Assembly (NCBI GenBank): GCA_016188425.1
Contig: JACPHX010000016.1
Location: 22,161-86,160, forward strand
DNA length: 64,000 nt
Direction: 5' to 3'
Source of the DNA: Candidatus Uhrbacteria bacterium
GTDB lineage: Bacteria > Patescibacteriota > Patescibacteriia > UBA9934 > GWF2-40-263
In this document: piece after piece, positions 4,391-34,628 of the stretch
How the letters are laid out: the number at the start of each line of letters is the position of its first letter
Numbering within the stretch: the first letter of the stretch is position 1
Notes under the pieces: generated by a model
The model's input: the letters and a program-made list of their open reading frames with translations, nothing else
Told to the model about the DNA's origin: nothing
The model's database searches: none
Made by a program: the position numbers and the translations under genes

Positions 4391-4449
4391 TCGCTGCTAA
4401 CTCTCGGGGTTAGCAGTGCCAACCCACAGAGTTAGCGCCGCATCTGTGG
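4391..4449. repeat. Palindromic element family 3 (GCTAAC-CTCGGGGTTAGCA-TGC), copy 1, intergenic between the rodZ-like gene and recA
   Basis: tcgctgctaactctcggggttagcagtgcc plus a second hairpin ccacagagttagcgccgcatctgtgg. Related to 35876-35922 (ctgctaacgctcggggtta, 24/26). Confidence 0.5.
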
Positions 4450-5571: not shown

Positions 5572-5622
5572 CGGGCAACCCCACCCTGCCCTCCCCTTGG
5601 CAGGGGGGGGTTCTGTGTCGGA
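5572..5622. repeat. GC-rich hairpin element family 1, copy immediately downstream of the recA stop
   Basis: ttcgggcaaccccaccctgccctccccttggcagggggggttctgtg. The stem is ccctgccctcccctt/ggcaggggggg. It may also serve as the recA terminator hairpin, but there is no T-tract. Confidence 0.55.
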
Positions 5623-7458: not shown

Positions 7459-7577
7459 GTAAAGAACTCCTCTCCGAAATAATAGCGCAAGATTGCGCTA
7501 GAAAAACTATAGCTTTTTATGGGGGAGGAGGCAACAAAAAGGCGGGGGCAGGGACCCCGCCTATTCTCTATTGGATC

Positions 7578-8144
7578 TTATTCGTTCACGCGTTCGACAT
7601 ATTCACCGTCTTCAGTGTTTACGATGATATGGTCGCCTTGGTTGATAAAAATGGGGACGCGAACGGTAAGCCCATTGTCCATTTTTGCTTCTTTCCGCAC
7701 GTTTCCCGAAGCGGTATCCCCTTTCACGGCCGGTTCGGTCTCGACTACGGCGTAGGTGATCTTCTTGGGAAGCTCGATCGTCAACGGCGTTTCCCCATGG
7801 ATGACCACCGTCACCTCCAACCCTTCTTTGAGGTAGTTCACATCATCGCCAACATCTTCCTTCGTGAGCGAAATCTGTTCATAGTTTTGGGTATCCATGA
7901 ACGTGTACAGAGAGCCGTCTGTGAAAAGATACTGCATCTTTTTGTACATGACATCCTCAAACGCCACGGATTCCGCTGACTTGAACACGTGTTCAACCAC
8001 CTTGCCGGATCGAAGATTTTTGATGCGCGTGCGCACGAACGAGCTCCCTTTGCCGGGGGAGACGCGCTGAAAAGAAATGACGACGTTGAGGTCGCCAGAA
8101 AGGTTGATGACCGTACCTTTTTTGATGTCGTTGGGGGAAGACAT
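7578..8144 (-). CDS. efp: Elongation factor P
   Basis: 188 aa from the internal Met (MSSPNDIKKGTVINL...). The KOW-like N-domain has a conserved SPGKGSSF loop (modifiable Lys), and there are OB domains II/III. The ORF track ORF is N-extended to 8255, probably spuriously. No SD. Confidence 0.9.
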   Translation of the reverse strand: MSSPNDIKKGTVINLSGDLNVVISFQRVSPGKGSSFVRTRIKNLRSGKVVEHVFKSAESVAFEDVMYKKMQYLFTDGSLYTFMDTQNYEQISLTKEDVGDDVNYLKEGLEVTVVIHGETPLTIELPKKITYAVVETEPAVKGDTASGNVRKEAKMDNGLTVRVPIFINQGDHIIVNTEDGEYVERVNE

Positions 8145-8167
8145 AGGGGGGTGGAGAATGGAGAATG

Positions 8168-8220
8168 GGGAGTGTCCGGCGGAGCCGGATCCGGCTCCGC
8201 CGGAGAGCATGACGGAGGGG
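8168..8220. repeat. Palindromic element family 2, copy A (perfect 30-bp palindrome tccggcggagccggatccggctccgccgga), intergenic epmA-efp
   Basis: A 36-bp core gtgtccggcggagccggatccggctccgccggagag is identical to 15590-15625. Flanks are also similar (ggg.gtgtccgg ... ggagag.(c/a)(a/g)tgacgg). Confidence 0.8.
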
Positions 8221-8242
8221 GGAGGGAGAGTGGAGGAAAAAA

Positions 8243-8347
8243 AGACAAAGGGCAAGGGGCGAAGGGCTAAGGTTAAGGGATGGAAAGTTTTTTATTCCGA
8301 TCGGTGGCTTCTTCCACCCTTCGACCTTCGCCCTTTGACCTTCGACC
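8243..8347. repeat. Imperfect long inverted repeat built from phased 7-mers (xAAGGGx x5 ... CGACCTT x5)
   Basis: acaaagggcaaggggcgaagggctaaggttaaggg ... cacccttcgaccttcgccctttgaccttcgacc in the 210-bp IGR between epmA and efp. Could form a ~30-bp stem. Confidence 0.55.
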
Positions 8348-8354
8348 TGTCTCC

Positions 8355-9326
8355 TCATCCTCCTAGGAACAACTTCCTCCCAGGAAACAACAGAACGTCT
8401 TCGATGTCTTTTGTGCCGATCATCATCATATGCAAGCGGTCCAGGCCCATGGCATTGCCAAAGGTCGGTGTTGCCACGGATGGTAGCAATCGCAGGAACT
8501 CTTCGTCAATCGGGAAGACTGTTTTGCCGATGCGACGGCGTTCCTCCGCTTCCTCAAGAAATCTCCGTCGTTGCTCGAGGGCATCGGTAAGCTCGGTGAA
8601 TCCGTTGGAGAGCTCCAGATGATCCATGTACAACTCGACGCGCTCTCCAAAACGTCCGGTCGCGTCCAATCGAGATAGTGACGCTTGATAACGGGGATAG
8701 TCGTAAACGAAAACGGGGTCGCGCGGAAGATTGGGTTCGACGAATTGGAGGAAGAGACGGTAGTACAGGTCGCTTTCGGTGTCGGTGGGGTCGGTATGGA
8801 CGCCAAGCTCGTGGCAGCGGACGGCGAGCTCAGTCGCGCCAGCGGACAATAGGTCTAATTGGACGAATTGGATGAATAACTGGCGGACGGAGAGGCGCTG
8901 GAACGCAGGCCATTCCTTTCCAAAGGCCTTTCCCACTTCCCGGATGAGCCCTTCGGTCTCATCCATCATCGCGTGATGATCCGCTCCCTGCGTGTACCAC
9001 TCCATCATCGTGAACTCATGGTTGTGCGTGTTCCCGAACTCTTCTTCGTTGCGAAATACTTTGGTGATGGAAAAAATCTTTTCCATCCCCTGCCCCAACA
9101 GCTTTTTCATGGAGTACTCCGGGCTGGTCGCGAGCGCTCCGGCAAACCGTTCCTTCTTCTCGTTGATGACCGTTGTCTCAAACGGCACCAAATTCGGTTC
9201 CATCCCCGGACACTTGAGCAGGATCGGCGTCTCGACCTCCGTGTATCCCCTCTCACACAAAAAGGCACGGATCGTTTGCATGATCCGTTGCCTTTCGTTC
9301 GCAATGGTGGCGGCTAAGCGCGCCAT
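8355..9326 (-). CDS. epmA: EF-P--lysine ligase EpmA (GenX/PoxA; class II LysRS catalytic-core paralog)
   Basis: Segment-by-segment match to E. coli EpmA: RIMQTIRAFLCERGYTEVETP, LVPFET, LATSPEYSMKKLL, FRNEE, EFTMMEWY, FVYDYPRYQASL, ELSNGFTELTDALEQRRRF, MGLDRL. Adjacent to efp. Start taken at the internal Met (MARLAATIANE). The ORF track extends to 9416, overlapping rpsR. Confidence 0.85.
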   Translation of the reverse strand: MARLAATIANERQRIMQTIRAFLCERGYTEVETPILLKCPGMEPNLVPFETTVINEKKERFAGALATSPEYSMKKLLGQGMEKIFSITKVFRNEEEFGNTHNHEFTMMEWYTQGADHHAMMDETEGLIREVGKAFGKEWPAFQRLSVRQLFIQFVQLDLLSAGATELAVRCHELGVHTDPTDTESDLYYRLFLQFVEPNLPRDPVFVYDYPRYQASLSRLDATGRFGERVELYMDHLELSNGFTELTDALEQRRRFLEEAEERRRIGKTVFPIDEEFLRLLPSVATPTFGNAMGLDRLHMMMIGTKDIEDVLLFPGRKLFLGG

Positions 9327-9334
9327 GCGCGTGT

Positions 9335-9559
9335 TTAACGTTGAATGAATGGAATCAACGCCATGATGCGCGAACGCTTCACGGCTACGGCGAGTTGGCG
9401 CTGATGCCCCATGCACACCTTGCTGCGCTTGCGCGCGACAATCTTTCCGAAACTCGAAAGGTAGCGGCGCAACAGGCCGACATCCTTATAATCGATTTCT
9501 TCTACTTTATGCAGACAAAAGCCGCAGACGCGCTTTTTGCCGTTGGTTTGTGATTTCAT
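9335..9559 (-). CDS. rpsR: 30S ribosomal protein S18
   Basis: 74 aa with KRVCGFC...EIDYKDVGLLRRYLS..GKIV.RK..K....QRQLAVAVKRSR. Part of the canonical rpsF-ssb-rpsR order. Confidence 0.9.
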   Translation of the reverse strand: MKSQTNGKKRVCGFCLHKVEEIDYKDVGLLRRYLSSFGKIVARKRSKVCMGHQRQLAVAVKRSRIMALIPFIQR

Positions 9560-10754: not shown

Positions 10755-13700
10755 CTAGCGGTTGGATATGAGAGGGACTAAGCGCATTTGGTGATCGATG
10801 GATGGAGCCGCGGCGCGGGCGGCGGTTGGGTCGAAAACATCCCGGTTTACTTGGGAGAGCGGTATCCCCTTTTCATAGGAAGAGACGAAGGAATCCGATA
10901 GGTCGTCCACGGCTTTTTGCCAGCCAGGACCGAAATAGTCGTGCGCCACTGCCTCTGTCTCAAGCGGATACAGGATTCCTCCCGCTCCCACGCCATACAC
11001 CTTGGGATCCGACACAACCTTCACCATCTTTCCCGGTCGGTACAGCACGTCCCCCGCCAAAGGAACGGCCGCGAGATCCTGTTCAGGAATGATGATGAGC
11101 GATCGGTAATCCGAAAACCAGGTAAAAAATATGCGCTCATTGGGGAAGGCGTGGCGCTCCCCATCCATGCCGAGGTAATACACCGTCCGGCAGGGATGCG
11201 TGAAATCTTCCCACCCAGGACACTCAAATTTGAGGAGAGGCCCGCCAACCGGCTGCGCAAAAATGTCGTAACCAAACGTAGAACGTATGGATGCCTCCAG
11301 TACCTGCCGTTGATTGGTAAGAGCGGCGAGCGTTAATCCACCCGGCAAATCGTAGATGATGGTTGCTCCAACCAAACCACCAAACTGACCGCTCAATGAT
11401 TGGGCGCGGGCGAAGAGTACATACACCCCTTCTGCCGCAGGAAGCGTATAGGTCGTTTGCGTCACGCCCCCTTGCATGGGCTGCCACAGCGCCCCCGCAA
11501 ACGTCGGGTCGGGAGAAATCTGGTTCTGGCTTGCTCCGTAGGATTGATAGGTAACCTGGATCACGGGAGAATCTGTCACTGACGCTCCCCCATTTAGGAG
11601 CAGACGCCCCGCCACGGGCGCCATGGTCGTGAGAGCAGAGGCGCGCGGGTTTGGGGGTGGGGGCGGGGCGACCGATTGGAGATAAATGAGATAGGACGCT
11701 CCGCGATCTGCTCCAGAGGAACTTTCAGTCGGGGTGCCTGTCAAAAAATCCGGAACGCCATTCCCATCCAAATCACTCACCATGGCGACCGACCTCCCAA
11801 ACCCGCCGGGGGATGGAATCTGCGGGGATCCGGTTCGGTTCGGAAGAATATTCATGGTACGAATGATCGTCCCGTCCGCATTGAGAAAATGGACATACGC
11901 CGCCCCCATATCCGTTCCGATCGTATCTGTCCCAGGGGCGCCTACAACCAAATCTTGAATGCCGTCCGCGTTCACGTCCCCCGCAAAGGCAACGGAAGCG
12001 CCATACTGGTCCCCTGCCATCACCGGAGCGCCAAAGAAAGTTTGTCCTGTTAATTCAATCGTCCTTTTCACGGACCCGTCCATATTCATGAGATGGATGA
12101 ACACGCTCCCCTGTTCTTCCCCCAGAACCAGCCGCTCCGGAGCGCCAACGGCGAGATCCTGGACGCCATCATGATCGACATCTCCGATCAGCGTCACGGA
12201 CTGGCCATAGCCTTCATCAATCCCAAGACCAGCCGGCCCATTGGGAGAAAGATTGTTTATGGAAACCGTCCGTTTGACCCGGCCATCCGCTTGCAAGAAA
12301 TGAATATACACATTGCCTGCGCCGCCGTTTGCAAGCGGAGTCGACACGGCCAAATCCGCGATCCCATCGCGATCTAAATCCCCTACGCCCGCAAGCGAAG
12401 TCCCGTATTCGACTCCCGCGGAATGCAACGGACCATTTGGCGTAGCAGAATTGATCTCCGCTGTGCGTTGGATGCTTCCATCCCGGCTCATGTAGTGGAT
12501 GAATACCGCACCTTGGGCCATCCCTGGGTTTTGATCATGTGTCGCAGAAACGGCGATCTCTTGAACGCCATCGCGATCCAAGTCACCAATCAGAGTCATG
12601 GCGCTTCCGTAGCGATCCTTGGGGAACAGGAGCGCGCCTCCCCGGGTAAAGGCATTCAGTTCCGTTGTTTGCTTCACCCGTCCGTCTGCTCGAAGGAAGT
12701 GGATGTAGGCAGACCCAACTTCGATGCCTCCTGTATTGTCGTCTGGAGATCCAACCAGAACATCGGCGACACCGTCACGATCCAAATCCCCGATGCTGGT
12801 CACAGAACTTCCATACTGATCCAAATCCGACAGGACAGGGCCATTCTCAACCGCCTCGCGAATGACGACCGATCGATTCGGCTCCGCGTACGAGTATGTC
12901 GCCGTCCTCCAGGAGAAGGCATTGCGGCCAACCACCGCATCAGGAAAATCTTCCTCGGCGAAAATGCCTTTAAAAAGCCAGCTGTCGTCCACATCGATAA
13001 AATCATCGGCCACCTCTGCCCCGACGACATTCAAAAACGCAGGCGTTCCAGAGACGGTCGAACGAATGCGCAGCCGATTCGTCGTGGAAACGCCGCGTGC
13101 CTCAAACCGATGCAGGATGGATTGGGTGATCATGGGCTCAAACAGAACCGTTTGCGCTCCGATCAGATCCAAATCGTAAAAGGTGTTCGACCCGAGTATG
13201 GTTTGCGTATTGGAAGGGCGATCGAAAATGAAATGTGCGGTTCCAGGATCAAACCCGCCCGTGAGATGCCGGAAGTCCCCGGAGATATGAACGGTTGCCG
13301 TCCCCGCATGAACCGTGCCTCGATACTCGTTGCGCCATCGTATGGTGCCGACGTTCAAATCGACGTCGATGGTCGCATCCGCTTGTGAAGCGTTACCGTC
13401 GAAGATGGCTCCATGGTCCACGACCGCCCCGACGCCAGGCGCCCCGCCCAAACAGTTCTGCCAGTTCGCGGGCGTGCTCCATTTTCCGTCCCCGGAGGCG
13501 TTGATCCAGATACATTCTGCCCCAGGCTCCCCTGGGCCATCCGGATCCCGGGGAGAAAAAGGAACAAAACTCACATACACCACCCCCTTCTCTACTCCAG
13601 TCGCTTGTTCATGAGAAAGACCGGACGCAAAATCCACGAGCCCATTTTTATCCATGTCCCCCAAGGCCGAGAGCGACATTCCCAAACGAGGAAATCGCTG

Positions 13701-15518
13701 GATCGAACTGACCTCTGGAGTGCTTTGCACGATAAATTCTGTTTTTAGAACGGATCCATCTGCGGCCATCTGATGCACATACAGGCCGCCGACCGGCGCC
13801 CCATCAACATCCCTCCCCGGGGCGCCGACAAGCAAATCGGGGACGCCGTCCCGATTATAATCACCCACGCCGATCACCGCGTGCCCATAGGCATCAAAAT
13901 CAGAAAGCTGCGGACCGTTCATGGTCGTCTTGTCGATGAATACCGTCCGCTTCACGCTGCCATCCGCATTCATCAAGTGAATATACAGCATGCCGCGATC
14001 TGTCCCCCCTCCGTTAGTAAACGGCGCTCCAACCGCCATGTCCGTCACCCCGTCGCCATCAAGGTCACCGATGGATCCGAGCGCAAACCCGTATCTCCCG
14101 TTTGCCTCGAGGCCCGCCGGTCCGTTGCTGGTCAGACGATCTATCGTAACGGTCCGTTTCACGGAACCGTCTGTTTTCATGAAATGAATGAACAGCCGGC
14201 CAAATTGGCCATCTGCCCCGCTGGCCCCAACCGCCAGATCCGCCACCCCATCGGCATCGATATCTCCCAGCGAGGCGAGGGAGGATCCGTAACGATCCCC
14301 CGCCACAAGGACGGCTCCGTTTGGCGTGAGGCCATCTAGGCGGATCGTCCGGCTGATGCCGCCCGCGAGCGTGAGCGAGTGAATTTGCACGGCCCCCGCC
14401 CCTCCGTTTGCCCCCGGAGAACCAACCGCCACCTCCACGGCTCCGTCATGGTTCAAATCCCCCACCGCTGCCACCGACGATCCGTACAGATCCCCGGCCG
14501 CAAGCGCGGGACCATTGGGTGTGGCGGCGGTAATTTGTGCGCTTTGCCTCACAGACCCATTTTGATTCAGGAAAGAAAGATACGCCGACCCTGCCTCCGG
14601 GGCCGATGCATCGTTGTTGGGCGAAGCCATGAACAGATCCGTCGTCCCATTGCGGTCTACATCTCCCACATTGGCCACCGCATAGCCGAACCGGTCACCG
14701 GCAACAATGCCTTGAGGCCCATTCACGACCGAACCGTCAATTTTGATAAAAGGAGCCCGACTGGGTTCGGCATCCCGCCCTGGGGCAAACCATAAACGGT
14801 TATTCCCGCGATTTTGCGAGTTCTGCGGATTGAGTGGACGCACCCCGTCCTGCACGAGCCATTGGTCTTGCACGTCTACGTGAGTCGCGCTCGCTGCTGC
14901 CCCTTTCACGTTGATGATGGACGCGAGGCCGGGGATACGCGAGACGATTTTCAATGGCTGGCCACCTGTCACTCCCGCGGCCTGAAAAGCGGCGGTGACG
15001 CGTGTCGTCACCCCTGGCTCCAAGACTATGGTTTGTCCCCCCAAAAATCGAAGCGTTGAAAAAGCAGTCGCCCCTGTGATGGTTTGAGAGGAACCGGCCG
15101 CACCGTCAAACACCACCGTAGAGGTAGCTGCGACGAATGTCCCTCCCAAATGGGAAAAATCCCCTTTGATTTGCATGGTATGGGTGCGCGCCGTGAAGAA
15201 ACCATTGTAACTTTGCAGCATCCGGAAAGAATTGATGGAAACTGAACGGTCTAAAAAAGCATTCGATTGAGAAACCGTGCCATCAAAAACCACATCCGCC
15301 CCCGTAACGATCCCTACCCCAGGCACCCCTCCCAAACAGCCGCTCCAGTTCCCCGCATTGTTCCACAACTGCGTGCCCGCCCCATTGGTCCACGTACAAG
15401 TGGCGGGAACAGCAGAGCGACCGATGCGAATGCCGTAGAAGGCAATGACAACCGCCGTCAAAAAAACACACGCAAGGACAGAGGAACGGCGACGCGAAAC
15501 AGCGCGGAAGGAGAGCAT
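10755..15518 (-). CDS. Giant membrane-anchored FG-GAP (integrin-alpha-like) repeat protein, 1587 aa
   Basis: N-terminal TM anchor. The N-terminal module is duplicated (CTWTNGAGTQLWNNAGNWSGCLGGVPGVG / CIWINASGDGKWSTPANWQNCLGGAPGVG). Roughly 20 FG-GAP-type repeats follow (YGSS..xxGDxDxDGVxDLxVGAP), then a Pro-rich linker and a ~230-aa C-terminal domain. Confidence 0.75.
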   Translation of the reverse strand: MLSFRAVSRRRSSVLACVFLTAVVIAFYGIRIGRSAVPATCTWTNGAGTQLWNNAGNWSGCLGGVPGVGIVTGADVVFDGTVSQSNAFLDRSVSINSFRMLQSYNGFFTARTHTMQIKGDFSHLGGTFVAATSTVVFDGAAGSSQTITGATAFSTLRFLGGQTIVLEPGVTTRVTAAFQAAGVTGGQPLKIVSRIPGLASIINVKGAAASATHVDVQDQWLVQDGVRPLNPQNSQNRGNNRLWFAPGRDAEPSRAPFIKIDGSVVNGPQGIVAGDRFGYAVANVGDVDRNGTTDLFMASPNNDASAPEAGSAYLSFLNQNGSVRQSAQITAATPNGPALAAGDLYGSSVAAVGDLNHDGAVEVAVGSPGANGGAGAVQIHSLTLAGGISRTIRLDGLTPNGAVLVAGDRYGSSLASLGDIDADGVADLAVGASGADGQFGRLFIHFMKTDGSVKRTVTIDRLTSNGPAGLEANGRYGFALGSIGDLDGDGVTDMAVGAPFTNGGGTDRGMLYIHLMNADGSVKRTVFIDKTTMNGPQLSDFDAYGHAVIGVGDYNRDGVPDLLVGAPGRDVDGAPVGGLYVHQMAADGSVLKTEFIVQSTPEVSSIQRFPRLGMSLSALGDMDKNGLVDFASGLSHEQATGVEKGVVYVSFVPFSPRDPDGPGEPGAECIWINASGDGKWSTPANWQNCLGGAPGVGAVVDHGAIFDGNASQADATIDVDLNVGTIRWRNEYRGTVHAGTATVHISGDFRHLTGGFDPGTAHFIFDRPSNTQTILGSNTFYDLDLIGAQTVLFEPMITQSILHRFEARGVSTTNRLRIRSTVSGTPAFLNVVGAEVADDFIDVDDSWLFKGIFAEEDFPDAVVGRNAFSWRTATYSYAEPNRSVVIREAVENGPVLSDLDQYGSSVTSIGDLDRDGVADVLVGSPDDNTGGIEVGSAYIHFLRADGRVKQTTELNAFTRGGALLFPKDRYGSAMTLIGDLDRDGVQEIAVSATHDQNPGMAQGAVFIHYMSRDGSIQRTAEINSATPNGPLHSAGVEYGTSLAGVGDLDRDGIADLAVSTPLANGGAGNVYIHFLQADGRVKRTVSINNLSPNGPAGLGIDEGYGQSVTLIGDVDHDGVQDLAVGAPERLVLGEEQGSVFIHLMNMDGSVKRTIELTGQTFFGAPVMAGDQYGASVAFAGDVNADGIQDLVVGAPGTDTIGTDMGAAYVHFLNADGTIIRTMNILPNRTGSPQIPSPGGFGRSVAMVSDLDGNGVPDFLTGTPTESSSGADRGASYLIYLQSVAPPPPPNPRASALTTMAPVAGRLLLNGGASVTDSPVIQVTYQSYGASQNQISPDPTFAGALWQPMQGGVTQTTYTLPAAEGVYVLFARAQSLSGQFGGLVGATIIYDLPGGLTLAALTNQRQVLEASIRSTFGYDIFAQPVGGPLLKFECPGWEDFTHPCRTVYYLGMDGERHAFPNERIFFTWFSDYRSLIIIPEQDLAAVPLAGDVLYRPGKMVKVVSDPKVYGVGAGGILYPLETEAVAHDYFGPGWQKAVDDLSDSFVSSYEKGIPLSQVNRDVFDPTAARAAAPSIDHQMRLVPLISNR

Positions 15519-15555
15519 AGATAGGAACAGTATACAGCAAGAGGACGGATCTCTT

Positions 15556-18500
15556 TTAGGTTTTGAGGGAGGAGGCGTGAGGTGGGAGGGTGTCCGGCGG
15601 AGCCGGATCCGGCTCCGCCGGAGAGAGTGACGGGGAAGGCTTGTGTTGTGCTGTTCCGGAGGGGAGAGGGCTCATGTCTACACGCATGCTCAACAGTTCC
15701 GGCTGTTTGATAGAACGATAATCGATAGGACGCACCTCGGTGGTTTGATACCCTTCCTTTTCGAAGGTGGCGTAATACTCGTTGGGACCAAGAAGGAAGT
15801 GGTAGCGTCCGTTGCGGTCGGTAAGACGGGAGTCGATAAGCTTGTTGTAGAGCGGCTCAAACACACGGATAACAGCATCTCGCAACGGTTTTTTCGTGGA
15901 CTTGTCATATACGATCCCCCAGCTCTTCGGTTTGCGCGGGCGAACCAGAACGAACACAAGAACGAGCAAGACGACCTGCAAAATGAAGACACCGATTGTG
16001 AACGCAGAAGGATGAAGAATAAGGACGACAAGCGCCAACACGACGCTCGCCCACGAGAGCGCCGACTCAAGGCGGCGAAGGCGACGTTTCCAACGAATAC
16101 GCAACGCTTCTTTTTCTCCCTTTTCCAAAATGGGATCTAGCGGGATATTGGCGCTAATAACGGCGTTTTTATCTGTCACGCGGATCACCTCGCCGTGATA
16201 GACATCCAAATATTCGCCATCCGTACGAACTTTCTTGAGCCATTCGCTTGGGAAGGAAAACTCCGGCTTGGTCACTTCAATTTGATACTCGCCAGGATCC
16301 GCCAGAAATTCATACATCCCATCTTTCCCAGTGACCCGCGTACGCACCACCTTCGCGTCGGGCAAACGCAGGAGACGGACGACCGCCAATTCAACCGGCA
16401 GCTTTATCCCCGAATGGTACACGACCCCGTATCCTTTTCGTTTCCGCTTAAAGAAAAGACGCAGGGGTTGGGTGAACAAGAGCTGAAGGAACGGCCACAG
16501 TTGGAATTGCAACAACAGAAAACCGATACTGATAGCAGAAAGCGGAACGAACATGAAAGAGAAGCCATCAGCAATCCCGCTCAACAAAGCCCACAGCGAA
16601 AGCTCCGGCCCGGGAATCATAATCTGGGGGTTGATGATGCGGTCTCCATCATCCTCAACCGGCGACCACCCGCTTCCAAGGAGATCCTTAACTCCCTCCA
16701 CGGAATACCGTCCGGCAGGAACATACCAGTAAAAACTGCCATCTACTGGAGTTTCTAAAGGATTCTGTTGGAAAAATGCCGCAATGTTCATGGGGCGATC
16801 TAGCCCGAACTCACGCACATACAGCCGCGCAGAGGCCCCCGAGAGCGGCTGGATAATGCCATCTTGATTCCGCCACACCAACCGGCCGCGCGGCTGCGCC
16901 TCCAGCACATAAGAAAACGACTGCTGCGTGCGATCCTGATAGGTCACCAAGAGAAGCAGGGCGTAATTGCTGACGACGGCAGGGACACGCAAGGTTCCGA
17001 CCCATCCACGATCATCCGTGACCAGCGAGGAAGAACTCGTAGAAAAGTAGGCGTCTATCTTTTCGATCGCTTTGGTTCCCTCATCTGGAATGAGACGCAC
17101 TTGAACGTCTGTATCCACCACCGCGCGGAAACGAATTTCCTGAAGCGGCAGTTCGATTGTCTCGCTTTGTACAAGGAAATGATTCTCTTCCCCAGAAAGC
17201 TCCCCCGGGCGAAGCGGAAACGCCGTGCAATCAACCGGACAGGTCAGAATACTCTCCCCTTTTCCGCAAAATCCGTTTCCACACGCGATGGTGCACCCAG
17301 GGCCGACGCAAATGGGACAGGCCGACCCTACGCAAGGGAGCGGGCAATCCCTCACGCAACTTGCCGGGTCTTCACCGATGCCGCAGACGAGATCACCGCA
17401 GACGGGCGCGCATCCTGGCCCCGTACACGCAGAACAGCCAGGACCGACGCAGGCCACACAATTTGGCCCTGTGCACGGTGCTGGACAATCGATAATGCAG
17501 TTGGCGAGATCCTCCCCGATGCCGCAGACGAAATCTCCACAGACGGGCGTACAGCCAGGGCCCGTACAGGACGCCGGGCAATCGATAATGCAGTTGGCCA
17601 AATCTTCATTCAGGCCGCAGATAAAGTCTCCGCAAAAACCGTTTGTCTGCAATAAGGTTTTGCACGCAATATCTCCCGTCTGGTCAGAGAGAGCCCCGCT
17701 TTGTGACAAGTAGCGCGCCGTATAGGTCGTATCTTGCTGCAACCCGGTCACGGGGAAGGAATGCGAAATGACATACGCGTTGTTCACGAGATGCACGTTC
17801 TTATTGTTGGGATCTGCGCCATACAGCACATCCCCGTCCGCAGGGATATTCGTCTCCCATGCCCAGGTAAGCGAATTATACGAAACGTCCTCGCACCGAG
17901 GGTTGGAAATAAGCACCGGGACGCCAGAGGGACAAACGGGGGTGGCATTGGTAAACGCCCCTGTATAAAATTGGTTCACGCTATCGTACCCGAACACCCC
18001 GTAATAATACGTCGTCCCCGAAACCGCGCTTGAATGGACAAACGTCGTGCTGGCACCATCGTACAGCACGGTTCCGTCATTCTCATCCGCGGGGTAGGTA
18101 TCCGTCCTATACACCACGCGCGCGCCCACCAAAGGCGGAGGAAGCGTCCAGGTTAAACTGTTCTGGCAAAACCCCGGCGTCACGGTAACGGTTATGGGAG
18201 TAATCGGGGGCAAGCCGAAGGGGATGCCGGAATCCAGCGCGATGGGCGCGAACGACCCATTGCTATCAGAGGCGAACGCCGCGTAAAAATATTCCTGACC
18301 GGATACGATCCCTGGGTGCATGAGCGAGCTTCCGGGGCCATCATACAAAAACGTACCATCGGCAATACTGACTGGATAACGATCCAATCGATAAACGATG
18401 ACGGTGTCGACATAAGGAAATCCGGAGGGCGAATACCACGCCAAGTTGTTTAAATACAGCCCAGGCGTGACATCGAGCACTAAACTGACAACCGCGGAAC

Positions 18501-19704
18501 AATCCGGAGTCTGAAACACCAAATCGGTCGATTCGTTGGTATTTCCATCCTGGTCCGTCACGGCAATTTTTGCGCGATACGCGGTTTGGGGGGAAAGCCC
18601 GCTCAACGTAACCGCATGCGAGAGCGCGGGTGTGGAACTCAAAACGGGGCCTAACCCGTACAAGGGAGTAAGCCCATACACCACCGAACCTGTCGTGGGC
18701 CGGTTGGTATCCCACACGACCGTTGCTTCCGTGCAGGAGAGCAAATTGACATGGGGAGCAAGAATAAGCGGATCGGTTGTGTAGGGGGTATGGAACGTGA
18801 GGGTGAGAGCGGCAAAATTGTTACAAAAATCTTCCGAAGTGATCCGCGCCTCATAATCCATTCCAGGGGTGAGCCCGGTAAGGTTGTAGGAATGAGCTAT
18901 CACCAACGATCCGCTGAAAAGCGTCCCGTCATAGGGCGGAGTCGGTGCAACCCCCCAAGAAACCTGGTCGTTGGCATTCTCGTTGGTGGACCACGAGACG
19001 ACAGCAGACGTTGGGGTGATCCCTGAAATACTCGGGTTGATAAACAAAGGCGCGACCGTATCGCTGCATCCGCCTCCTCCGCCCGGGGGAGGCGCCGCTC
19101 CTACCGAGGCCGTAATCTCCACTTCATCATCCGACACGATAGAGATGGCCGCTTGGTTGGCATCCCCAAACCCGCCCGTCACCGCGACCTCAAAATTCCC
19201 CTCGACCGCAGGATTGACGATCTGATTCACCCCTGCCCCGCCGAAACCGCTGATCGTACCAACCTCGATTTGCACGCAGCGTCCTCCCGGTATTTCTCCG
19301 GCCGCCGCGTCCGTGGGAGGGGTAAAGGCAATCTCCTGCCCCGCAATCCCCACGCCCCAAATACCAGCCGCTGCCGCAACCGCCAGCGTTTCATCCGTAA
19401 ACGGGCCATCGCAAGCCCCGTCGTCATCCACGGCAAAATCAAAATCCAATGGGCTTGAAAGCGCGGTTAAGTCCCATCCTGCCTCATACACCAACTTCAC
19501 GGTATCGGTGGAACTGTCGACCCCCGTAGGCGTCACGAAACGAACGACGTGATTGGTCACTTCTCCTGTCGATTGCGCACTCGGAGTCACGGAATAACTG
19601 GTCAAGATCGCGGCAAAGGCAACGGAGACAAATTGGAACAATAAGGCGGTGGAAACACCGAGAAAACTCACCCAAACTGCTTTTCGTAGCATCGCGATAG
19701 TCAC
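15556..19704 (-). CDS. Giant surface protein, 1382 aa: signal/anchor, FN3-like domains, three tandem Cys-rich CGDFVCGxGEDxxNCxxDCP repeats, then multi-TM region with two carboxypeptidase-regulatory-like beta-sandwich domains
   Basis: Hydrophobic N-terminus. FN3-like segments (VVSWSTNENANDQVSWGV...YEARITSED). The Cys-rich repeats lie at about nt 17200-17650. C-terminal TM helices are interleaved with GVVYHSG...EYQIEV and GIVYDKST...EYYATFEKEGY modules. The last ~20 codons are contributed by palindromic element family 2. Confidence 0.7.
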   Translation of the reverse strand: MTIAMLRKAVWVSFLGVSTALLFQFVSVAFAAILTSYSVTPSAQSTGEVTNHVVRFVTPTGVDSSTDTVKLVYEAGWDLTALSSPLDFDFAVDDDGACDGPFTDETLAVAAAAGIWGVGIAGQEIAFTPPTDAAAGEIPGGRCVQIEVGTISGFGGAGVNQIVNPAVEGNFEVAVTGGFGDANQAAISIVSDDEVEITASVGAAPPPGGGGGCSDTVAPLFINPSISGITPTSAVVSWSTNENANDQVSWGVAPTPPYDGTLFSGSLVIAHSYNLTGLTPGMDYEARITSEDFCNNFAALTLTFHTPYTTDPLILAPHVNLLSCTEATVVWDTNRPTTGSVVYGLTPLYGLGPVLSSTPALSHAVTLSGLSPQTAYRAKIAVTDQDGNTNESTDLVFQTPDCSAVVSLVLDVTPGLYLNNLAWYSPSGFPYVDTVIVYRLDRYPVSIADGTFLYDGPGSSLMHPGIVSGQEYFYAAFASDSNGSFAPIALDSGIPFGLPPITPITVTVTPGFCQNSLTWTLPPPLVGARVVYRTDTYPADENDGTVLYDGASTTFVHSSAVSGTTYYYGVFGYDSVNQFYTGAFTNATPVCPSGVPVLISNPRCEDVSYNSLTWAWETNIPADGDVLYGADPNNKNVHLVNNAYVISHSFPVTGLQQDTTYTARYLSQSGALSDQTGDIACKTLLQTNGFCGDFICGLNEDLANCIIDCPASCTGPGCTPVCGDFVCGIGEDLANCIIDCPAPCTGPNCVACVGPGCSACTGPGCAPVCGDLVCGIGEDPASCVRDCPLPCVGSACPICVGPGCTIACGNGFCGKGESILTCPVDCTAFPLRPGELSGEENHFLVQSETIELPLQEIRFRAVVDTDVQVRLIPDEGTKAIEKIDAYFSTSSSSLVTDDRGWVGTLRVPAVVSNYALLLLVTYQDRTQQSFSYVLEAQPRGRLVWRNQDGIIQPLSGASARLYVREFGLDRPMNIAAFFQQNPLETPVDGSFYWYVPAGRYSVEGVKDLLGSGWSPVEDDGDRIINPQIMIPGPELSLWALLSGIADGFSFMFVPLSAISIGFLLLQFQLWPFLQLLFTQPLRLFFKRKRKGYGVVYHSGIKLPVELAVVRLLRLPDAKVVRTRVTGKDGMYEFLADPGEYQIEVTKPEFSFPSEWLKKVRTDGEYLDVYHGEVIRVTDKNAVISANIPLDPILEKGEKEALRIRWKRRLRRLESALSWASVVLALVVLILHPSAFTIGVFILQVVLLVLVFVLVRPRKPKSWGIVYDKSTKKPLRDAVIRVFEPLYNKLIDSRLTDRNGRYHFLLGPNEYYATFEKEGYQTTEVRPIDYRSIKQPELLSMRVDMSPLPSGTAQHKPSPSLSPAEPDPAPPDTLPPHASSLKT
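15585..15635. repeat. Palindromic element family 2, copy B, embedded in the 3' end of the giant gene CDS (encodes ...SPAEPDPAPPDTLPP...)
   Basis: 36-bp core identical to 8173-8208. It lies just inside the stop codon (15556) of the 1382-aa ORF. Confidence 0.8.
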
Positions 19705-19752: not shown

Positions 19753-22700
19753 CTAAGGGGTAACGGGGACAGAGGCGGGATCAATGACCGCCTCTGGTGG
19801 AACGACTGGTTCTTCGGCAACGGGAGGGTCTTCAACAAGAGGCGGTTCTTCCGTTACGGTAGGTTCCTCAACCGCGGGGGGTTCCTCGACGACAGGGGGA
19901 TCGATCGGGTCGGCGGGGGGGTCGGATGGAGGAACAATCGGATCTGTCACAGGATCGGTCGGCGGCATTACCCCTTCGATGGGAGGAGGTTCAACGGCTT
20001 CTTCGACAACATCTTCATGGTCCTTGCGGACGGCCGTGACATGCCAATCGACGACGATGCCGGAATCCATGCCATCAAGCTGGCGCACGGTGAAACCGTT
20101 GTTATCCTTCTGTGAAACATAGACGTACGCGGGGCCGTTGGCAGTCGTTACGACGGAGATAGGTGAGCTTGTCGAGGTAATGTCGTTAAAGGAAGCGTCG
20201 ACATCTTCGAAGGATACAGTCGCTTCTCCTTGTGAGAGGGTCGCGCTTCCCGAAAGGAACACCGAGTGGTCGGTCGTAAGCATGGCATGAGCGGAAACGT
20301 TTTCGTTCTGATAGGAACGAATCACGACATTGTAGGAAGCGACCGTGGCGAAAAGACCCGCCTCGTCCACGGACCAGGTGTTCCCCATGCCGACCAGCTT
20401 GCCGACATCCAACAGATGATTGCCATGGAGGTACACGGAGCCGTACATATCGAGCGAAGAGAGCTGGGCGTTTGAAGAAATGCCACTGGCGACATTGTCT
20501 ATCGGAGCTACGGCCGCTCCCCCTGTGTGCGAAAGGTTGATGAAGGTAATGATCAAATTATCAGGCGACGAGGCCGTGTATGGTTCCATCGCGTAGCCAA
20601 TAACGGGCCCATCCTCGGTTGCCTTCATAGCCACCCCCGGGACAGACGAGGTCGTCAGCGAATCGCCGATCTCAATCGCGCCGTTCTCATCGGTCACCTT
20701 TGTGGGCACGCGGCCAGCAAGGGCGATGGGGAAATCGCCCGCCCGATTGTCACCCGCCAAGAACCCGGGTTTTGTTGAAACGACACCTGCAACGAGGCCG
20801 TCGTAAGTCTTTCCGGTAGATCGCGAGACATGTTCCGTGTCGCTCACCGAGAAAATTACGACATCGCCCGCCTCAAGCTGATCTTTTGAAGGGAACATCT
20901 CTGCAAAATCGTAGGAGCCAGTCCCCCACCCAGAGGCATTGGTGCGCATAAGGTCGCCGCCAGGGCCGGCAGAACCATCGTAATAGATGTATTTATTCGT
21001 CTGCTTCGTTCCGCGGTCGGATGGGTACAAGTTGCCGCCGATCCACAAATCGCCGGCGAGGCTCATCGCGCCGTCTTGGGTAAGGTAAGCGATTTCTTGA
21101 TCAAGACTATCTTTGTAGGAAAGACGGTATTCATTTTTGTCGGTCACTTCCAAGGCAATGCTTATGGCACGATCGACGGCCACGGAGGAGCTACTATCCC
21201 AGGCACTGCCGCGGAAGGCGAGCGCGTGTGATCCTTGGGCTTGATCGACGGCGGTTGCAGCGATGACGCGGTTGATCGCCAGAGCTTGCTCCACCGTGGC
21301 GACAGAGCCATCGTTAGCGATAACGGCGCCGCTGTGCCACGAAGGCTGCACGTACACGCGAATCGTTCCGACCCCAGGCCCAGTCCATGAATCGAGCGCC
21401 ATACCGACCACCATTCCGGGAAGCGTGGATTTCATGCCCGCGCCGGCGGTTGAGGAAGAGGTGATGGGGTCGCCTGGACGAATCGCTCCGTTTTCGTCGC
21501 TGACTTTCAGAGGAACGCGGCCGGCGGTCGCAATGGCTTTCGGATACGTGGCTGCGTCGATAACGCCGCGGCCGTAGCTTTGCGCCGGCGAGGTGGAGAC
21601 GATACCGACGATGCGTGATTCGTAAGGGGTCGAGGATTTATCGAGAACCGTCAGGTCGCTGACTATTTTGCCTCCCGTGAGGATACCGGTGAGCGGCTCC
21701 ACTTCATCGGCTTCGTAGGTGATCGTCGAGTCGGTGGCAACGACCAAGTCTCCCGCGGTTTCATCACCGGTTGTTTCATACCATTCCGCGATGTCATCCG
21801 GGGCGGCGGAACAGACGACGAGTTCACGATCCGTGGCCGTGGTATCCGAATCCGCCCCGCTGTGGCAGACGCCGTTGGTGGTGGCGGCCCCGTTAAAATC
21901 AGTCTTGATGACTCCGTTCACGTCCAAGATCGTGGCGCCGATGGCGATGGTGCCGTCGGTACCGTCGTTGTCGATGGTTTCGCCTTGCTGAAGGGTGATG
22001 TCGGTGGTCATGTTGGCGCCGGCGCCGTTGGAAAAGACGAGGCCGTTGGTAATGGTTCCCGATGTACTATTCACGACAATGCCGTTTGTGATACCCATAT
22101 CCCCCGTCGAATCGATCCGTAGCCCAATGTCGACCGTAATATCAGACAAGTCATTCACATCTGCGTTATCAATATACAGCAGTTGTGAAACATTCGTATC
22201 ACTTACCCCCGCATCGCTGATGTTTTGATTGCGGATTCTAAAGACTTCTTCCGTTACGTTAACCCCACCGCCAACCGGCGCGGTCCAAAGAGTTTCAAAG
22301 GCAGATATAGTACCACCCGTCACCGAGCCAGAAAGTGTGCTTCTGACATCGATTGTGTTTGAAGTCCACGTAGAAGATTCGGAAGTTGAGTAATGTGCCG
22401 TGAGATCAAGAACTTTTCCGATAGAAAAAGAGTCGCCACTTGTGACGTTATCAAAGTTGAAAATGGATCCTGATGATATGGCGGAGGTGACAACGTCGAT
22501 GACGCTACCTGTTGTGGCATTTGACGTAAATGTGAAGGCACCATCTGCAACACCGTTGCTGATGGTTTCCCCATTTTGCAGACGAATGTCTGTGCCAATG
22601 GATAGGCTTGAAAAATTAAGACCAATTGTCTGCGCACCGCTTATATTGATACCGGTCGTGACCCCCGTCCCGATTTCAATACCATCTGAAATCGTGCCTA

Positions 22701-25700
22701 CTGTTCCGCTCACATACAGACCGTTTGTAATACCCATCCCCCCCGTCGAGTCGATCGTTATACCATTGTCAACAATAATATCTGATAAATCATCGACATC
22801 TGCGTTATCAATGTAAAGTAATTGTGAAACATTGTTATCACTCACTCCCGCATCGCTGATATTTTGATTGCGGATTCTGAAAACTTCCTCCGTGACGTTT
22901 ACCCCACCTCCAACCGGCGCGGTCCAAAGGGTTTCAAAGGCGGAAATGGTGCCACCCGTAACAGAACCAGAAAGCGCACTCCTTACATCTATCGTGTTTG
23001 ATGTCCAAGAGGATGATTCTGAAGTACTGTGTTCTGCCGTTATATCAAGAACTTTTCCTATAGACAATGCATCCGCGTTCGTTACGTTGTCATAGAGAAA
23101 GACAGAGCCGACATCAATATTGGTAGATAGGATTTCCAAGATATTTTGATCTCCGTTGGTAGAGGTAGAAGAGAATCGGAATGTCCCATTTATATCATTT
23201 GAAAGCGTTTCCCCATTCTGAAAACTGATATCGGTTCCAATGCCTGTATTTGAGAGATGAATCCCTGTGGTGGCCGCACCAGCGATTTCAATGGCGTCTG
23301 TAAGGCTGCCAGAAGAAGTGGAAATACGGATGGCGTCCGAAACAGCTGCTCCGTTTGTATCGATATGGAGTTGACCGGTTGGAGCGACGATACCAATCCC
23401 CACATTCCCTCCATCCAGCACAGTAAATACTTGCGACGTATTGTCGTAGAGGTTGAAAATATCGAAGGTATTGGTGCCATTGCTGACCGTGAGCGCTCCG
23501 TCTGGGGCAACAAATGAACCTGATTGGTTTCCAATACCAAGGCGAGATTCGTCGTCCAGGCGCATGCCGGGAGAGAAAGTGCCGTCGTCCATGACCCTGA
23601 AGTCGAGGGCTGCGTCTTCAGATCCATTAGTGGGATCAGTATTGTTTCCTTCAATGCTAGCAAAAGTTGTTTGCGTATTCGTATCGTCTTTCGTATCAAA
23701 ATTGAGAACAATATCTTCTGTGCCGGCAGCTGCGCCTCCAAAATTGTCGGAGTTATATAGGGTGAACAACGCGTTTCCATTGGATGCTTCTTCTATCTGC
23801 ATCGCGCCATTTGTTATGTTTGTGATCGTTCCGCTATTTTGGAGCCGAATGTCGGTAAGCGTCCCGATTCCAGTGGTATCAATCACCACACCATCGATCG
23901 CTGAAGCAGAATCGGCAATAACCTCAAGGCGGCCAGCAGGAGCGATCGTGCCGATCCCCACATTCCCTCCATCAAGCACGGTGAATACCTGCGAGGTGTT
24001 GTCATAAAGGTTGAAAATATCGAAGGTATTGGTGCCATTGCTGACCGTGAGCGCTCCGTCTGGGGCAACAAATGAACCTGATTGGTTTCCAATACCAAGG
24101 CGAGATTCGTCGTCCAGGCGCATGCCGGGAGAGAAAGTGCCATCATCCATGATACTGAAATCGAGGGCTGCGTCTTCGGAGGTATCGGTTGGGTCAATAG
24201 AGTTCGCCTCCATGCGCGCGATCGTTGTCTGTGTTCCAACGGTATCTCTTACGTCAAAATTGATACCAACATCTTCGGTACCTGCCGCAGCTCCACCGAA
24301 TGTATCCGCGTTATAGAAAGTAAAAAATGCATTTCCGTTTATATCTTCAATAAACTGCATGGTTCCATTCCCCAAGGACGGAGTGGAGCTAATTTGTAAA
24401 ATATTGTTTGTGGTGTCGTAAGAGATCGTTCCTTCATCTGTCGTACTAGTTCCTATATGTAATGAACCTGGCTGAACGAATAGATCAGCCCACCGATGAG
24501 TGTCGTCTCCCAGAGTCAGAGAGTTGGAGGTTGGTGGAAGAATTGAGGTATCAACGAGTCCGTTCACACTCACCAAATCCGCCGTTGAAGATCCTAAATC
24601 AATATTATTGTTAAAGAATCCGTTTCCAGAACCATCAATCGTGAAGTAATCCGTCGCTCCCCCGTTATTTTCAACCACGACGAGGTTTGATGTCTGGGTG
24701 GCGTTCGCTTGGATAAGAAGCTGAATTTCATCCGCATTTCCATCGGTTGCCAATTGGGCGGACAAGTTCGTCGCAGACCCAACCGTGACATTATCGGTAG
24801 CGGTCGTAAGGCGCACGAGTGTGCCGTCGTCGGTCCAACCGCCTCCACCGCCGCCACCTGCTGACAAATCGACCCAGGTAGTGCCGCTTCCGGCACTTGT
24901 ATTGACCCAAGTGGTGCCGGCTTGATCTAAATAAAGAGAACCCTCATTGGCGGTCACAATGGTGTTTGGATCTCCGCTTCCAGTAAAAACACCAACCGAC
25001 ACTCCCGCGGTAGTATCTGAGAAACGTAAAAATTCATCTTGATCGGCGGGATTTGAGGATTCAATATCCAACAGCGCGTCGGGCGTGGTGGATCCGATCC
25101 CCACGAAACCAGTATTGGCAAAAGTAGCAAAGGGTGTTCCTGCGTCGGCGATTTTGAAGTCTCCAGTGGTCGTCAAATCAAAGGTGAGCCCAGTTGTGTC
25201 ATCGACCTCCATTGTAAGATTCGTGTTGGTGATGGATTGCGCGTACACCTCGTCGAAATCCGGTGTTGTTCCCGCACCAGCCAGGTCTGTCCAAGTGGTT
25301 CCCGCATCTCCCGCGCTGGAGTTGACCCACGCTTTTCCCGCCTGGTCCAAGTAGAGAGATCCGGACTCGGCCGAATGGGTCGGTGTTCCTGTGCCGGTAT
25401 AGAAATCCACTTCATCGGCATTCGTTTCGTCCGTGAGGCGCATCAAGCTCGTATTCTCTGCATCGGAAATATCAATGTAGGTATCAGGAGTGATCGTGCC
25501 GATACCCAGCCGGCTCGTATCGGTGATGACGACGGGATTCGTGCCGAAATAGCGAAGGACGTCCGCACGCACGCTGGCGGCGGTCGACAAATCATCTACC
25601 GCCAACCCGTAAAAGGTTCCCACGGATCCTGCCCCTGTATCGCTCGTTTCGTTCACACTGAAGGCATAGTAGGTATCGATATTCCCTGCCGCCGTAATAA

Positions 25701-33831: not shown

Positions 33832-34628
33832 TTGGATTCTTCGACTCGGGAGTGGGTGGGCTCACCATCATCGAGGAAGTCCATCGACGGTTGCCCTCCT
33901 ACGGGACTGTCTATCTCGGAGACTCCGCTCGCATGCCTTACGGAGAGAAAAGGCACGACGAATTAGTCCAATTCCTTTGGGAAGGAGCGCAGTGGCTGTT
34001 TGCACGAGGATGCTCCCTTATCATCGTCGCCTGCAATTCCGCCTCCGCGAGCGCGCTGCGGGAGGTACAACAGACAAAACTCTCCTCGTTTCCGGGGCGT
34101 CGCATTCTTGGGGTCATCCGACCGACCGTTGAGGAACTCTCTCATCAAGGATATAAGCGAATCCTTGTGCTTTCGACGACGGCGACCAAAAAGAGCGAGG
34201 CATATGTGCATGAATTTGCTAAAATCAATCCTTCCATCCAGGTCATCTCGCACGCCTGCCCCAACTGGGGGCCGATGGTTGAGGAAGGAAAGGCGGTGTC
34301 TATTGAAATGAAAATCGAGGTGAATCGGGAGCTGTCTCTGGTTGACGATCCGTCAGCAATCGACGCTGTCCTGCTCGCCTGCACACATTATCCGTATGTC
34401 CGTGAGGATGTGGAGGCATTCTTCCTATACAAAATCCCCGTGTTTAACCAAGGAAACCTCGTCGCGAGCTCGTTGGAGGATTACCTCCTCCGACACCCAG
34501 AGATGGAACGGACGCTCACAAAAGACGGGGCGCGCGAGTATTTCACCACCGGAGACGTCGCAAATGCGGATTTCCTGGCATCAAAACGGTTTGGATACGA
34601 TGTCCGGTTCCAAAATACGTTTGTATAA
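33828..34628 (+). CDS. murI: Glutamate racemase
   Basis: IGFFDSGVGGLTI, catalytic Cys motifs ACNSAS and LACTHYP. 266 aa. Confidence 0.9.
   Translation: MIGFFDSGVGGLTIIEEVHRRLPSYGTVYLGDSARMPYGEKRHDELVQFLWEGAQWLFARGCSLIIVACNSASASALREVQQTKLSSFPGRRILGVIRPTVEELSHQGYKRILVLSTTATKKSEAYVHEFAKINPSIQVISHACPNWGPMVEEGKAVSIEMKIEVNRELSLVDDPSAIDAVLLACTHYPYVREDVEAFFLYKIPVFNQGNLVASSLEDYLLRHPEMERTLTKDGAREYFTTGDVANADFLASKRFGYDVRFQNTFV

Follow-up and report, generated by a model that had tools for sequence, protein, structure and literature searches.

Rickettsia palindromic elements (RPEs) are presented, in the summary given by PMC10969869, as selfish palindromic repeats that lie in frame within unrelated housekeeping genes, are translated into additional surface peptides, and have no transposase (Ogata et al., 2000, cited therein). 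The same summary describes them as approximately 100–150 bp long, imperfect, restricted to Rickettsia, and divided into diverged families (PMC10969869). Repetitive extragenic palindromic (REP) units carry a conserved GTAG or CGTC tetranucleotide at one end (PMC3733652). In organelles, the yeast mitochondrial GC cluster GC42 duplicates its AG target, and the double-hairpin elements (DHEs) of Allomyces are found without flanking duplications (PMC4478555; PMC2800124). The present analysis concerns a perfect 30-bp palindrome that occurs twice in a 64,000-nt stretch of DNA from Candidatus Uhrbacteria bacterium, a member of the Patescibacteria (assembly GCA_016188425.1, contig JACPHX010000016.1, positions 22,161 to 86,160; this whole stretch is referred to as the window). 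Genomes of Patescibacteria are tiny and streamlined, and are thought to be poor in mobile DNA. The palindrome nevertheless probably represents one family of copies of a selfish mobile element in these bacteria, ultra-small and non-autonomous.

In the window, the 36-bp string GTGTCCGGCGGAGCCGGATCCGGCTCCGCCGGAGAG occurs exactly twice, where no match is expected by chance (100 shuffles), and each occurrence encloses the perfect palindrome TCCGGCGGAGCCGGATCCGGCTCCGCCGGA. The two copies and the open reading frames (ORFs) that adjoin the second are as follows:

8172..8207: first identical 36-bp block, made up of the palindrome and 3 shared flank bases per side (GTG..GAG)
8175..8204: copy 1 of the palindrome (family A, TCCGGC-GGA-GCCGGA / TCCGGC-TCC-GCCGGA), in the epmA-efp intergenic region
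15590..15625: second identical 36-bp block
15593..15622: copy 2 of the palindrome, in the unconserved C-terminal tail of a 1382-aa ORF, read in frame 1 as PAEPDPAPP
15556..19704, minus strand: surface-protein ORF of 1382 aa, whose last Pfam domain (CarboxypepD_reg) ends at residue 1329
10755..15518, minus strand: FG-GAP repeat protein of 1587 aa, downstream of copy 2

Copy 1 lies 150 nt past the epmA stop and 30 nt ahead of the efp ATG, and copy 2 precedes the stop of the 1382-aa ORF by 34 nt and the next gene's ATG by 74 nt. The two copies have a further flank in common, GAGnnTGACGG, which reaches 8215; a weaker similarity between 8149–8215 and 15567–15633 amounts to 82%, its solid part being the 3 flank bases per side and GAGnnTGACGG. 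These shared flanks are absent from the copies in other genomes, and no degenerate third copy is present in the 64-kb window at up to 7 mismatches. Given the approximately 14 extra shared bases, one window copy may be a duplicate of the other that took the flanks along. Copy 1 also has independent read support, since two separate SRA runs from the window's organism both reach it: contigs of the Logan assemblies from SRR12113421 and SRR12113422, found via the neighboring 588-aa protein, start at an identical base inside copy 1 (L144:1-22 and L145:1-22). That these contigs start within the element indicates that short-read assemblies break there and thus that censuses of metagenome-assembled genomes (MAGs) undercount it.

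The initial annotation of this region had the 36-bp string and both palindromes right and misplaced only the first 36-bp site, giving 8173–8208. It erred at the second site, where the element was said to supply the last ~20 codons of the 1382-aa ORF and to contain its stop. The stop codon (15556–15558) lies 34 nt outside the palindrome, 31 nt outside the 36-bp block, and beyond the similar stretch of 67 nt. Since 30 bp leave the reading frame intact, the insert would have added only 10 codons, 11 codons before a pre-existing stop. Residues 1343–1382, a 40-aa tail, are not conserved, and homologs from Uhrbacteria and Buchananbacteria (at most 53% identity) end 3–20 residues past 'RVDM' or have unrelated tails. 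No ortholog above 53% identity was found, hence no empty site for copy 2. What is left of the proposal that a gene terminus was remodeled is a weak version of it, in which at most 10 residues were added to a 40-aa tail that homologs do not share and the stop was not created by the element. The C-terminus of the 1382-aa protein should thus not be regarded as element-made.

The palindrome is not confined to the window. A scan of GTDB with one genome per species (approximately 185,000 species genomes) and a 24-bp core as query returned 23 loci, of which 22 contain the full 30-mer, and therefore the six bases that were not part of the query are also invariant. The 23rd, in a MAG of Acidobacteria, is not the same beyond the core and is apparently a chance match. 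The 22 exact copies are distributed over 11 MAGs that independent studies produced and that carry the names Uhrbacteria, Doudnabacteria, Kerfeldbacteria, Parcubacteria, or Patescibacteria group, the three named host groups being assigned by NCBI to three candidate phyla; three MAGs labeled 'Gammaproteobacteria' also carry copies, and their proteins are Uhrbacteria-like. The flanks of the 22 copies are unrelated to one another and to those of the window. In metagenomes, a pattern that left all ten third-codon positions free matched at least 120 loci. Among the matches listed, nine were exact, one had a single change, and none had two or three; approximately 110 of those listed had 4–10 changes and came from loci of 51–75% GC (one of 29%), which is to say ordinary Gly/Ser/Ala-rich coding sequence. 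This absence of near-synonymous variants indicates that it is the DNA that is conserved and not the peptide. The initial annotation would have been contradicted had the palindrome been confined to the two window copies and had orthologs shared the C-terminal peptide without palindromic DNA; instead, the exact 30-mer was found at 31 places beyond the window (22 in GTDB and at least nine in metagenomes), which gives 33 copies at 32 distinct sites. Among 2.9 million viral contigs, neither the 30-mer nor the codon-degenerate pattern was found. The loose skeleton TCCG-N7-CGGATCCG-N7-CGGA had 39 matches in the viral contigs, approximately the number expected by chance, and only one looks related: L159:4886-4915, in an IMG/VR contig classed as viral, reads TCCGCCAAAGGCGGATCCGCCTCAGGCGGA and is 28/30 identical to variant B (described below), with non-complementary loops. 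Its context is uninformative. The match is a hint that tandem hairpins of this form occur beyond cellular MAGs as well.

The manner in which the element enters DNA is best seen in an oxidoreductase. Among 120 homologs, the ten encoded residues are present in two (L023 = P0047 and L014 = P0058), which are 61% identical to each other, and the insert is absent from the nearest relatives of both (94% identical to L023 and 73% identical to L014). Comparison of the empty site in L146, ...TTTTTGAAAAAA|GAATCC..., with the filled site in L023, ...TTTTTGAAAAAG-(30 bp)-GAATCT..., reveals exactly 30 extra bases. The filled and empty flanks sum to the same 11 nt, and thus no target-site duplication (TSD) is present. 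The element enters DNA as a clean 30-bp insertion without a TSD. In L014 and L023, it sits at an identical codon boundary, and synonymous sites differ up to both junctions, which is best read as two independent insertions. An insertion hot spot at this codon boundary is equally possible as the source of the coincidence. On the coding strand, the genic sites share the target AAR|RAA, or K|K/E/D in protein terms. Position −3 is A in 18/25 and position −2 is A in 18/25, a purine is present at −1 in 20/25 and at +1 in 23/25, and A at +2 is invariant (25/25 genic sites and 32/32 distinct exact-copy sites; background frequency of A, 0.26). In AAR|RAA, a DNA preference and selection for hydrophilic loops are inseparable, yet the non-genic sites still obey the +2 rule. 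Once inserted, copies drift under protein-level constraint only, as the decayed sequences show: variant C has two synonymous changes, L002:5613 has four (in frame, SGGAGPGSAW), and L056 has one. This decay argues against a host function for the palindrome itself. The mobility that had been proposed from the two window copies is thus strongly supported by more than 30 identical copies elsewhere, by a filled/empty pair at 94% identity, and by what are best read as independent insertions.

The element is found predominantly within genes, with 25 of the 32 distinct exact-copy sites inside long ORFs. All 25 are in frame 0 and encode SGGAGSGSAG, which has a probability of ~1e-12 under random frame. 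The palindrome reads identically in both orientations and contains no stop in any frame; the other two frames encode PAEPDPAPP and RRSRIRLRR. Its hosts include polA (Pol I), holA/holB (DNA pol III delta/delta'), smc, der, miaA, ileS, and lysS, together with the genes for uL6 and bS1, tgt, xth (exonuclease III), a UvrD-type helicase, and a pyridine-nucleotide oxidoreductase. Against the solved structure of Pol I (6vde), the insert is an exact 10-residue gap in the 5'-nuclease domain, and against solved uL6 it is an 8-residue gap in a loop/turn. Adjacent holA and polA genes can both be occupied: on the 9.7-kb contig CAYHWG010000037.1 (L007, L018), each has one copy, approximately 5 kb apart. In the window, holA (49243–50325) and polA (50347–53025) are empty. 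The remaining exact sites (L004, L012, L019, L020, L080, and the two window copies) lie upstream of start codons or in the last ~10 codons of ORFs, as does the one-change copy L056, and it is in this non-genic and gene-end group that frame 1 occurs. The frame-0 pattern suggests selection acting on insertions, and an in-frame bias of the target toward Lys codons could contribute.

Each 15-nt half of the palindrome is a hairpin with a 6-bp stem and a 3-nt loop (TCCGGC-GGA-GCCGGA, −5.9 kcal/mol), and the whole 30-nt strand can form a 13-bp stem of −18.7 kcal/mol as DNA and −29.5 kcal/mol as RNA. This architecture is retained in two variants with different stems. Variant B (L020:1498) is a perfect 30-bp palindrome, TCCGCC-AAA-GGCGGA|TCCGCC-TTT-GGCGGA. 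Variant C (L188:5046-5075 and L189:1503-1532), in the efp gene of the Patescibacteria MAG GCA_964373615.1, encodes SAGGGSASGG in frame; its DNA, TCCGCC-GGA-GGTGGA|TCCGCC-TCT-GGCGGA, combines the stem of B with the loop of A and is two synonymous substitutions off a perfect palindrome. Among 120 homologs, its host elongation factor P (EF-P), P0220, is the only one with such an insert, which is clean, 10 residues long, and located in the N-terminal beta-hairpin. Between A and B/C, the stems differ by the compensatory change G5C/C11G and the 6-3-6 hairpins are kept, and thus the small hairpins look like a constrained feature. It may be observed that efp has been hit twice, by variant C in frame in GCA_964373615.1 and by a family-A copy in the leader of the window's efp.

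Variant B belongs to an intergenic composite in L020 (CAYHDY010000007.1, 1258-1527), which is syntenic with the efp-recA neighborhood of the window and consists of the following parts:

L020:1258-1287: family-A palindrome
L020:1288-1317 / 1469-1498: 30-nt terminal inverted repeats (87%) of a 211-bp element
L020:1414-1429: solo 15-nt B hairpin
L020:1498-1527: family-B palindrome

The A and B copies each abut an AAAAAA end of the 211-bp element, and therefore both variants would have chosen the same target. Either this is the case or the whole composite is a larger mobile unit with palindromic tips.

These observations allow a mechanism to be proposed. The mobile unit is exactly 30 bp, with two inverted 15-nt mini-hairpins combining into a perfect palindrome that is free of stops in all frames. 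It lands at A-rich AAR|RAA sites, where frame-0 copies in genes add a flexible SGGAGSGSAG loop at surface positions. Movement would proceed via a single-strand hairpin intermediate that an enzyme handles in trans, and transfer between lineages would keep the copies young and identical. Patescibacteria depend on DNA uptake. The enzymes known to mobilize hairpin-bearing DNA and to leave no duplications are IS200/IS605 TnpA and RAYTs, and an enzyme of the HUH/IS200-IS605/RAYT kind is a possible, if tentative, candidate for the mobilizing activity. The two window copies would then be insertions at tolerated positions, one in the efp leader and the other in the dispensable tail/spacer after the 1382-aa ORF; we hold this likely as part of the reading of the whole as a mobile element, and the two copies probably have no dedicated function.

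Several points weigh against such an element. No transposase or HUH enzyme was found by Pfam in most of the window's 37 long ORFs, and an all-vs-all BLAST of the ORFs around 34 copies revealed, as recurrent neighbors, only housekeeping synteny and a universal XerC/D-like recombinase. With at most five exact copies per MAG (exact matches, in fragmented MAGs), the copy number is low for a proliferating repeat; such counts do not fix the copy number per genome, and searching by exact match inflates the apparent uniformity. MAG taxonomy and binning are as given by the submitters. The flanks shared by the two window copies are not predicted by a strictly 30-bp cut-and-paste mechanism. Finally, the identical site in L014 and L023 could reflect selection at the level of sequence; a coincidence of this kind has P ~0.2 at ~2000 permissive sites, which fits a hot spot or a limited number of permissive sites.

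An alternative possibility is that a dimeric DNA-binding protein recognizes the palindrome as its site (parS-, dif-, or operator-like). The palindrome would then be maintained by purifying selection and form a harmless linker where it falls in a gene. Its perfect dyad with four TCCG/CGGA tetramers would suit such a protein, as would an identical sequence across lineages with few copies per genome, the pairing of copies within short distances (7.4 kb apart in the window, and the holA/polA pair on a 9.7-kb contig), and the preservation of the sequence at one orthologous site despite differing flanking synonymous sites. A site under purifying selection would, however, not be expected to be present and absent in orthologs that are 94% identical, to be missing from 118/120 homologs, or to occupy non-orthologous positions from one genome to another. 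Nor does it accord with a sporadic occurrence in 11 of ~185,000 species genomes, with decayed copies that exhibit synonymous drift, or with sister variants that have different stems, and we know of no binding site that arises by repeated 30-bp insertions. A binding site is thus an unlikely explanation. A dif/Xer site, a DNA-uptake sequence, and a CRISPR repeat were also considered and rejected on copy number, the absence of arrays, and insertion polymorphism.

A somewhat more doubtful alternative is a functional RNA hairpin, which requires a closer view of the locus around copy 1. The gene order on the minus strand is rpsF-ssb-rpsR-epmA-efp, and the relevant features are as follows:

7578..8144, minus strand: efp, 188 aa, with its start at 8144 according to the NCBI annotation and homolog lengths of 187–188 aa
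8145..8174, minus strand: C/T-rich 30-nt efp leader between the palindrome and the ATG
8237..8341, minus strand: long imperfect hairpin (~105 nt) and then a T7 run, directly after the epmA stop, with weak miRNA-precursor-like Rfam hits
8355..9416, minus strand: epmA/poxA-like gene with a class II aminoacyl-tRNA synthetase core (Pfam tRNA-synt_2), given as the longest ORF

The true start of epmA is probably further downstream than that of the longest ORF. An N-terminal extension of EF-P from the ATG at 8210, which would place copy 1 in frame 0 of efp, was considered and rejected on the basis of the NCBI annotation and of the length of nearly all 120 homologs (187–188 aa). The window's EF-P is 100% identical to an NCBI protein that bears the name of Candidatus Uhrbacteria, and a separate exact look-up of it gave no record. 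The nearest other EF-P is 76% identical, which for copy 1 makes only intergenic length comparable. The epmA-efp spacer is 210 nt in the window and 31 nt (L147) or 5 nt (L188) in relatives; the 30-nt efp leader resembles the complete 31-nt spacer of L147. Since relatives have spacers of only 5–31 nt, the window's spacer has gained both the long hairpin and the palindrome. The long hairpin contains CGAAGG-like repeats, is unique in the window, and is absent from the relatives with 5–31-nt spacers, which makes it a second lineage-specific insertion in the same spacer. It likely serves as the epmA terminator, in a form of intrinsic terminator. The efp leader (8145–8174) and the leader of the FG-GAP gene (15519–15592) are C/T-rich and have no recognizable Shine-Dalgarno sequence, and the same is observed in the efp leader of a relative (L147:2970-3000).

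In the RNA-based explanation, the palindrome would terminate the upstream minus-strand gene, stabilize the 3' end of its mRNA, or regulate the downstream gene from the 5' leader. The initial annotation had named the first two as possible roles and placed both sites 3' of a minus-strand gene. Copy 1 is indeed 3' of epmA, and both copies lie between minus-strand genes, but copy 1 is also 30 nt upstream of the efp ATG and past the likely epmA terminator, whose hairpin and T7 run stand 30–40 nt upstream of the palindrome. The fold is very stable as RNA (−29.5 kcal/mol) and present in both the minimum free energy and centroid folds, and several non-genic copies (L012, L020, L056) are located at most 75 nt upstream of a start codon. 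The stem is, however, followed by CACTCCCC on the minus strand and by GAGCATGA on the plus strand, with no U-tract on either, and the palindrome was not called by a terminator scan; an Rfam search (E ≤ 1) over 7–17 kb found nothing at it. Moreover, 25 copies are in frame inside essential ORFs, where termination would be lethal, the 5–31-nt spacers of relatives do without the palindrome, and copies decay. Taken together, these observations make a role as terminator or mRNA stabilizer improbable, and the window copies are unsuited to annotation as terminators.

It is very improbable that the palindrome is a sequencing or assembly artifact, such as an adapter, a linker, or a chimera induced by palindromes. 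With GGATCC at its center and its coding for Gly and Ser, it resembles a synthetic linker, and the element is often at or close to a contig end (L010, L016, L144, L145); ending at a repeat longer than k is, however, expected assembler behavior. The copies come from independent studies, assemblers, and biomes but only from Patescibacteria-like DNA, with none in the 2.9 million viral contigs; their flanks are contiguous parts of one gene with exactly 30 extra bases and neither loss nor duplication, and some copies are decayed or variant. Selection that converged on a flexible SGGAGSGSAG linker, with the palindrome as a by-product of codon choice, would account for the same innocuous loop peptide in every genic copy, but it is scarcely credible given that there are no synonymous variants, that the very same DNA is found outside coding sequence and, at gene ends, in frame 1, and that the peptide does not require perfect dyad symmetry.

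Other repeats and palindromes were noticed along the way. In the window, short-loop hairpins that are perfect or nearly so separate convergent or tandem genes at 34625–34662, 35882–35918, 7540–7562, and 4395–4414; some are flanked by A/T runs and resemble bidirectional terminators, and 4395–4414 is related to 35880–35899. They may correspond to other 'families' of the initial annotation. A 22-bp perfect zero-spacer palindrome, ATTGGGAAAACGTTTTCCCAAT, is located at 2229–2250 (also L144:5947-5968) inside the ftsK ORF, where it is read as IGKTFSQ. In loci of the candidate phyla radiation (CPR), zero-spacer perfect palindromes of 20–28 bp (L012:2289, L021:5327, L023:881, L007:1412) exceed the ~0.4 expected by chance. 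Two giant ORFs, 19753–29388 (3211 aa, no Pfam hit) and 39697–46914 (2405 aa), contain internal tandem duplications and have long diverged repeats in common (66–89% over 300-nt blocks). GC-rich inverted segments at 5576–5617 and 52089–52130, which are 46 kb apart and contain CCCCTTGGCAGGGGG-type hairpins, may constitute another small repeat family.

If the palindrome is a mobile element, an active 30-bp mobile DNA exists in Patescibacteria and has rewritten loops of uL6, bS1, Pol I, the clamp loader, and aminoacyl-tRNA synthetases identically across candidate phyla. It would amount to a natural in-frame linker-scanning experiment on essential proteins and could be used as a marker of recent DNA exchange between CPR lineages, with gene co-occurrence profiling as a route to the responsible enzyme. 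There is also a practical warning, in that the element interrupts short-read assemblies and that ORFs predicted by gene callers will run on through it. A broader proposal, toward which we incline with some reserve, is that the palindrome belongs to a superfamily of double-hairpin mobile elements, 30 bp long and hitherto undescribed, that has at least three variants holding a 6-3-6|6-3-6 fold through compensatory change, is specific to Patescibacteria/CPR, crosses candidate phyla, and inserts at AAR|RAA without target duplication. In such a superfamily, the element would persist in essential genes because only one frame is tolerated and, whichever way the element is oriented, that frame specifies a Gly/Ser/Ala linker. 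If so, these elements would rank with the smallest mobile DNAs on record, would be to bacteria what GC clusters are to mitochondria, and would imply a hairpin-handling enzyme in these minimal genomes. A literature search by keywords, peptide, and DNA string found no description of the element, which is no proof of novelty.

How, then, does this element compare with known systems? Like a Rho-independent terminator, it is a GC-rich stem-loop between genes in the window, but it has no U-tract and has intra-ORF copies elsewhere. With prokaryotic MITEs (miniature transposable elements with inverted repeats; PMC10969869), it shares a non-autonomous nature, inverted repeats, and the capacity to make in-frame fusions. 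It differs from MITEs in the absence of a TSD (L023 vs. L146) and in its size, 30 bp as opposed to typically 50–500 bp or more; half-sites bracketing an ORF, as expected of a parent insertion sequence, were not found in ~217 kb of CPR loci. A derivative of the IS200/IS605 (peel-and-paste) type would be expected to have hairpin ends, no TSD, and insertions 3' of a fixed 4–5-nt target. Hairpins are present here and a TSD is absent, the target is only loosely defined as AAR|RAA, in which A at +2 does not vary, and no TnpA was found among the window ORFs scanned. REP units and REPINs (PMC3116915; PMC3733652) are also short, GC-rich hairpins that form inverted doublets and are non-autonomous, with an HUH/Y1 enzyme as the obvious candidate. 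Unlike REPs, the element starts with TCCG and ends with CGGA in 33/33 exact copies and has no GTAG/CGTC head, and the extragenic rule fails, with 25/32 distinct sites inside ORFs. Compared with REPINs, it has zero spacer between its units. REP/REPIN families number tens to hundreds of copies per genome, and the count here, of exact matches in fragmented MAGs, is at most five per MAG. No Y1_Tnp/RAYT match was obtained among the window ORFs scanned (most of 37 long ORFs), and none recurs near the copies.

The closest parallels are found elsewhere. Yeast mitochondrial GC clusters and the hairpin elements of Allomyces and sponges are likewise short (~30–80 nt), GC-rich, and mobile in small AT-rich genomes, with conserved stems and variable loops. 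Those elements are organellar and mostly intergenic, whereas the one described here is bacterial, mostly genic and in frame, and without duplication; the relationship is thus one of analogy and not of membership. As far as the summary cited above describes RPEs, the element resembles them in that 25/25 genic copies are in frame without stops and in that its host is a bacterium with a small genome. Relative to the same description, it differs in its length of 30 bp, its perfect dyad, its identity across candidate phyla, its use of one frame, and its Patescibacteria host. On our best reading, the element belongs to no described family and behaves like the palindromic elements of Rickettsia and the GC clusters of mitochondria.

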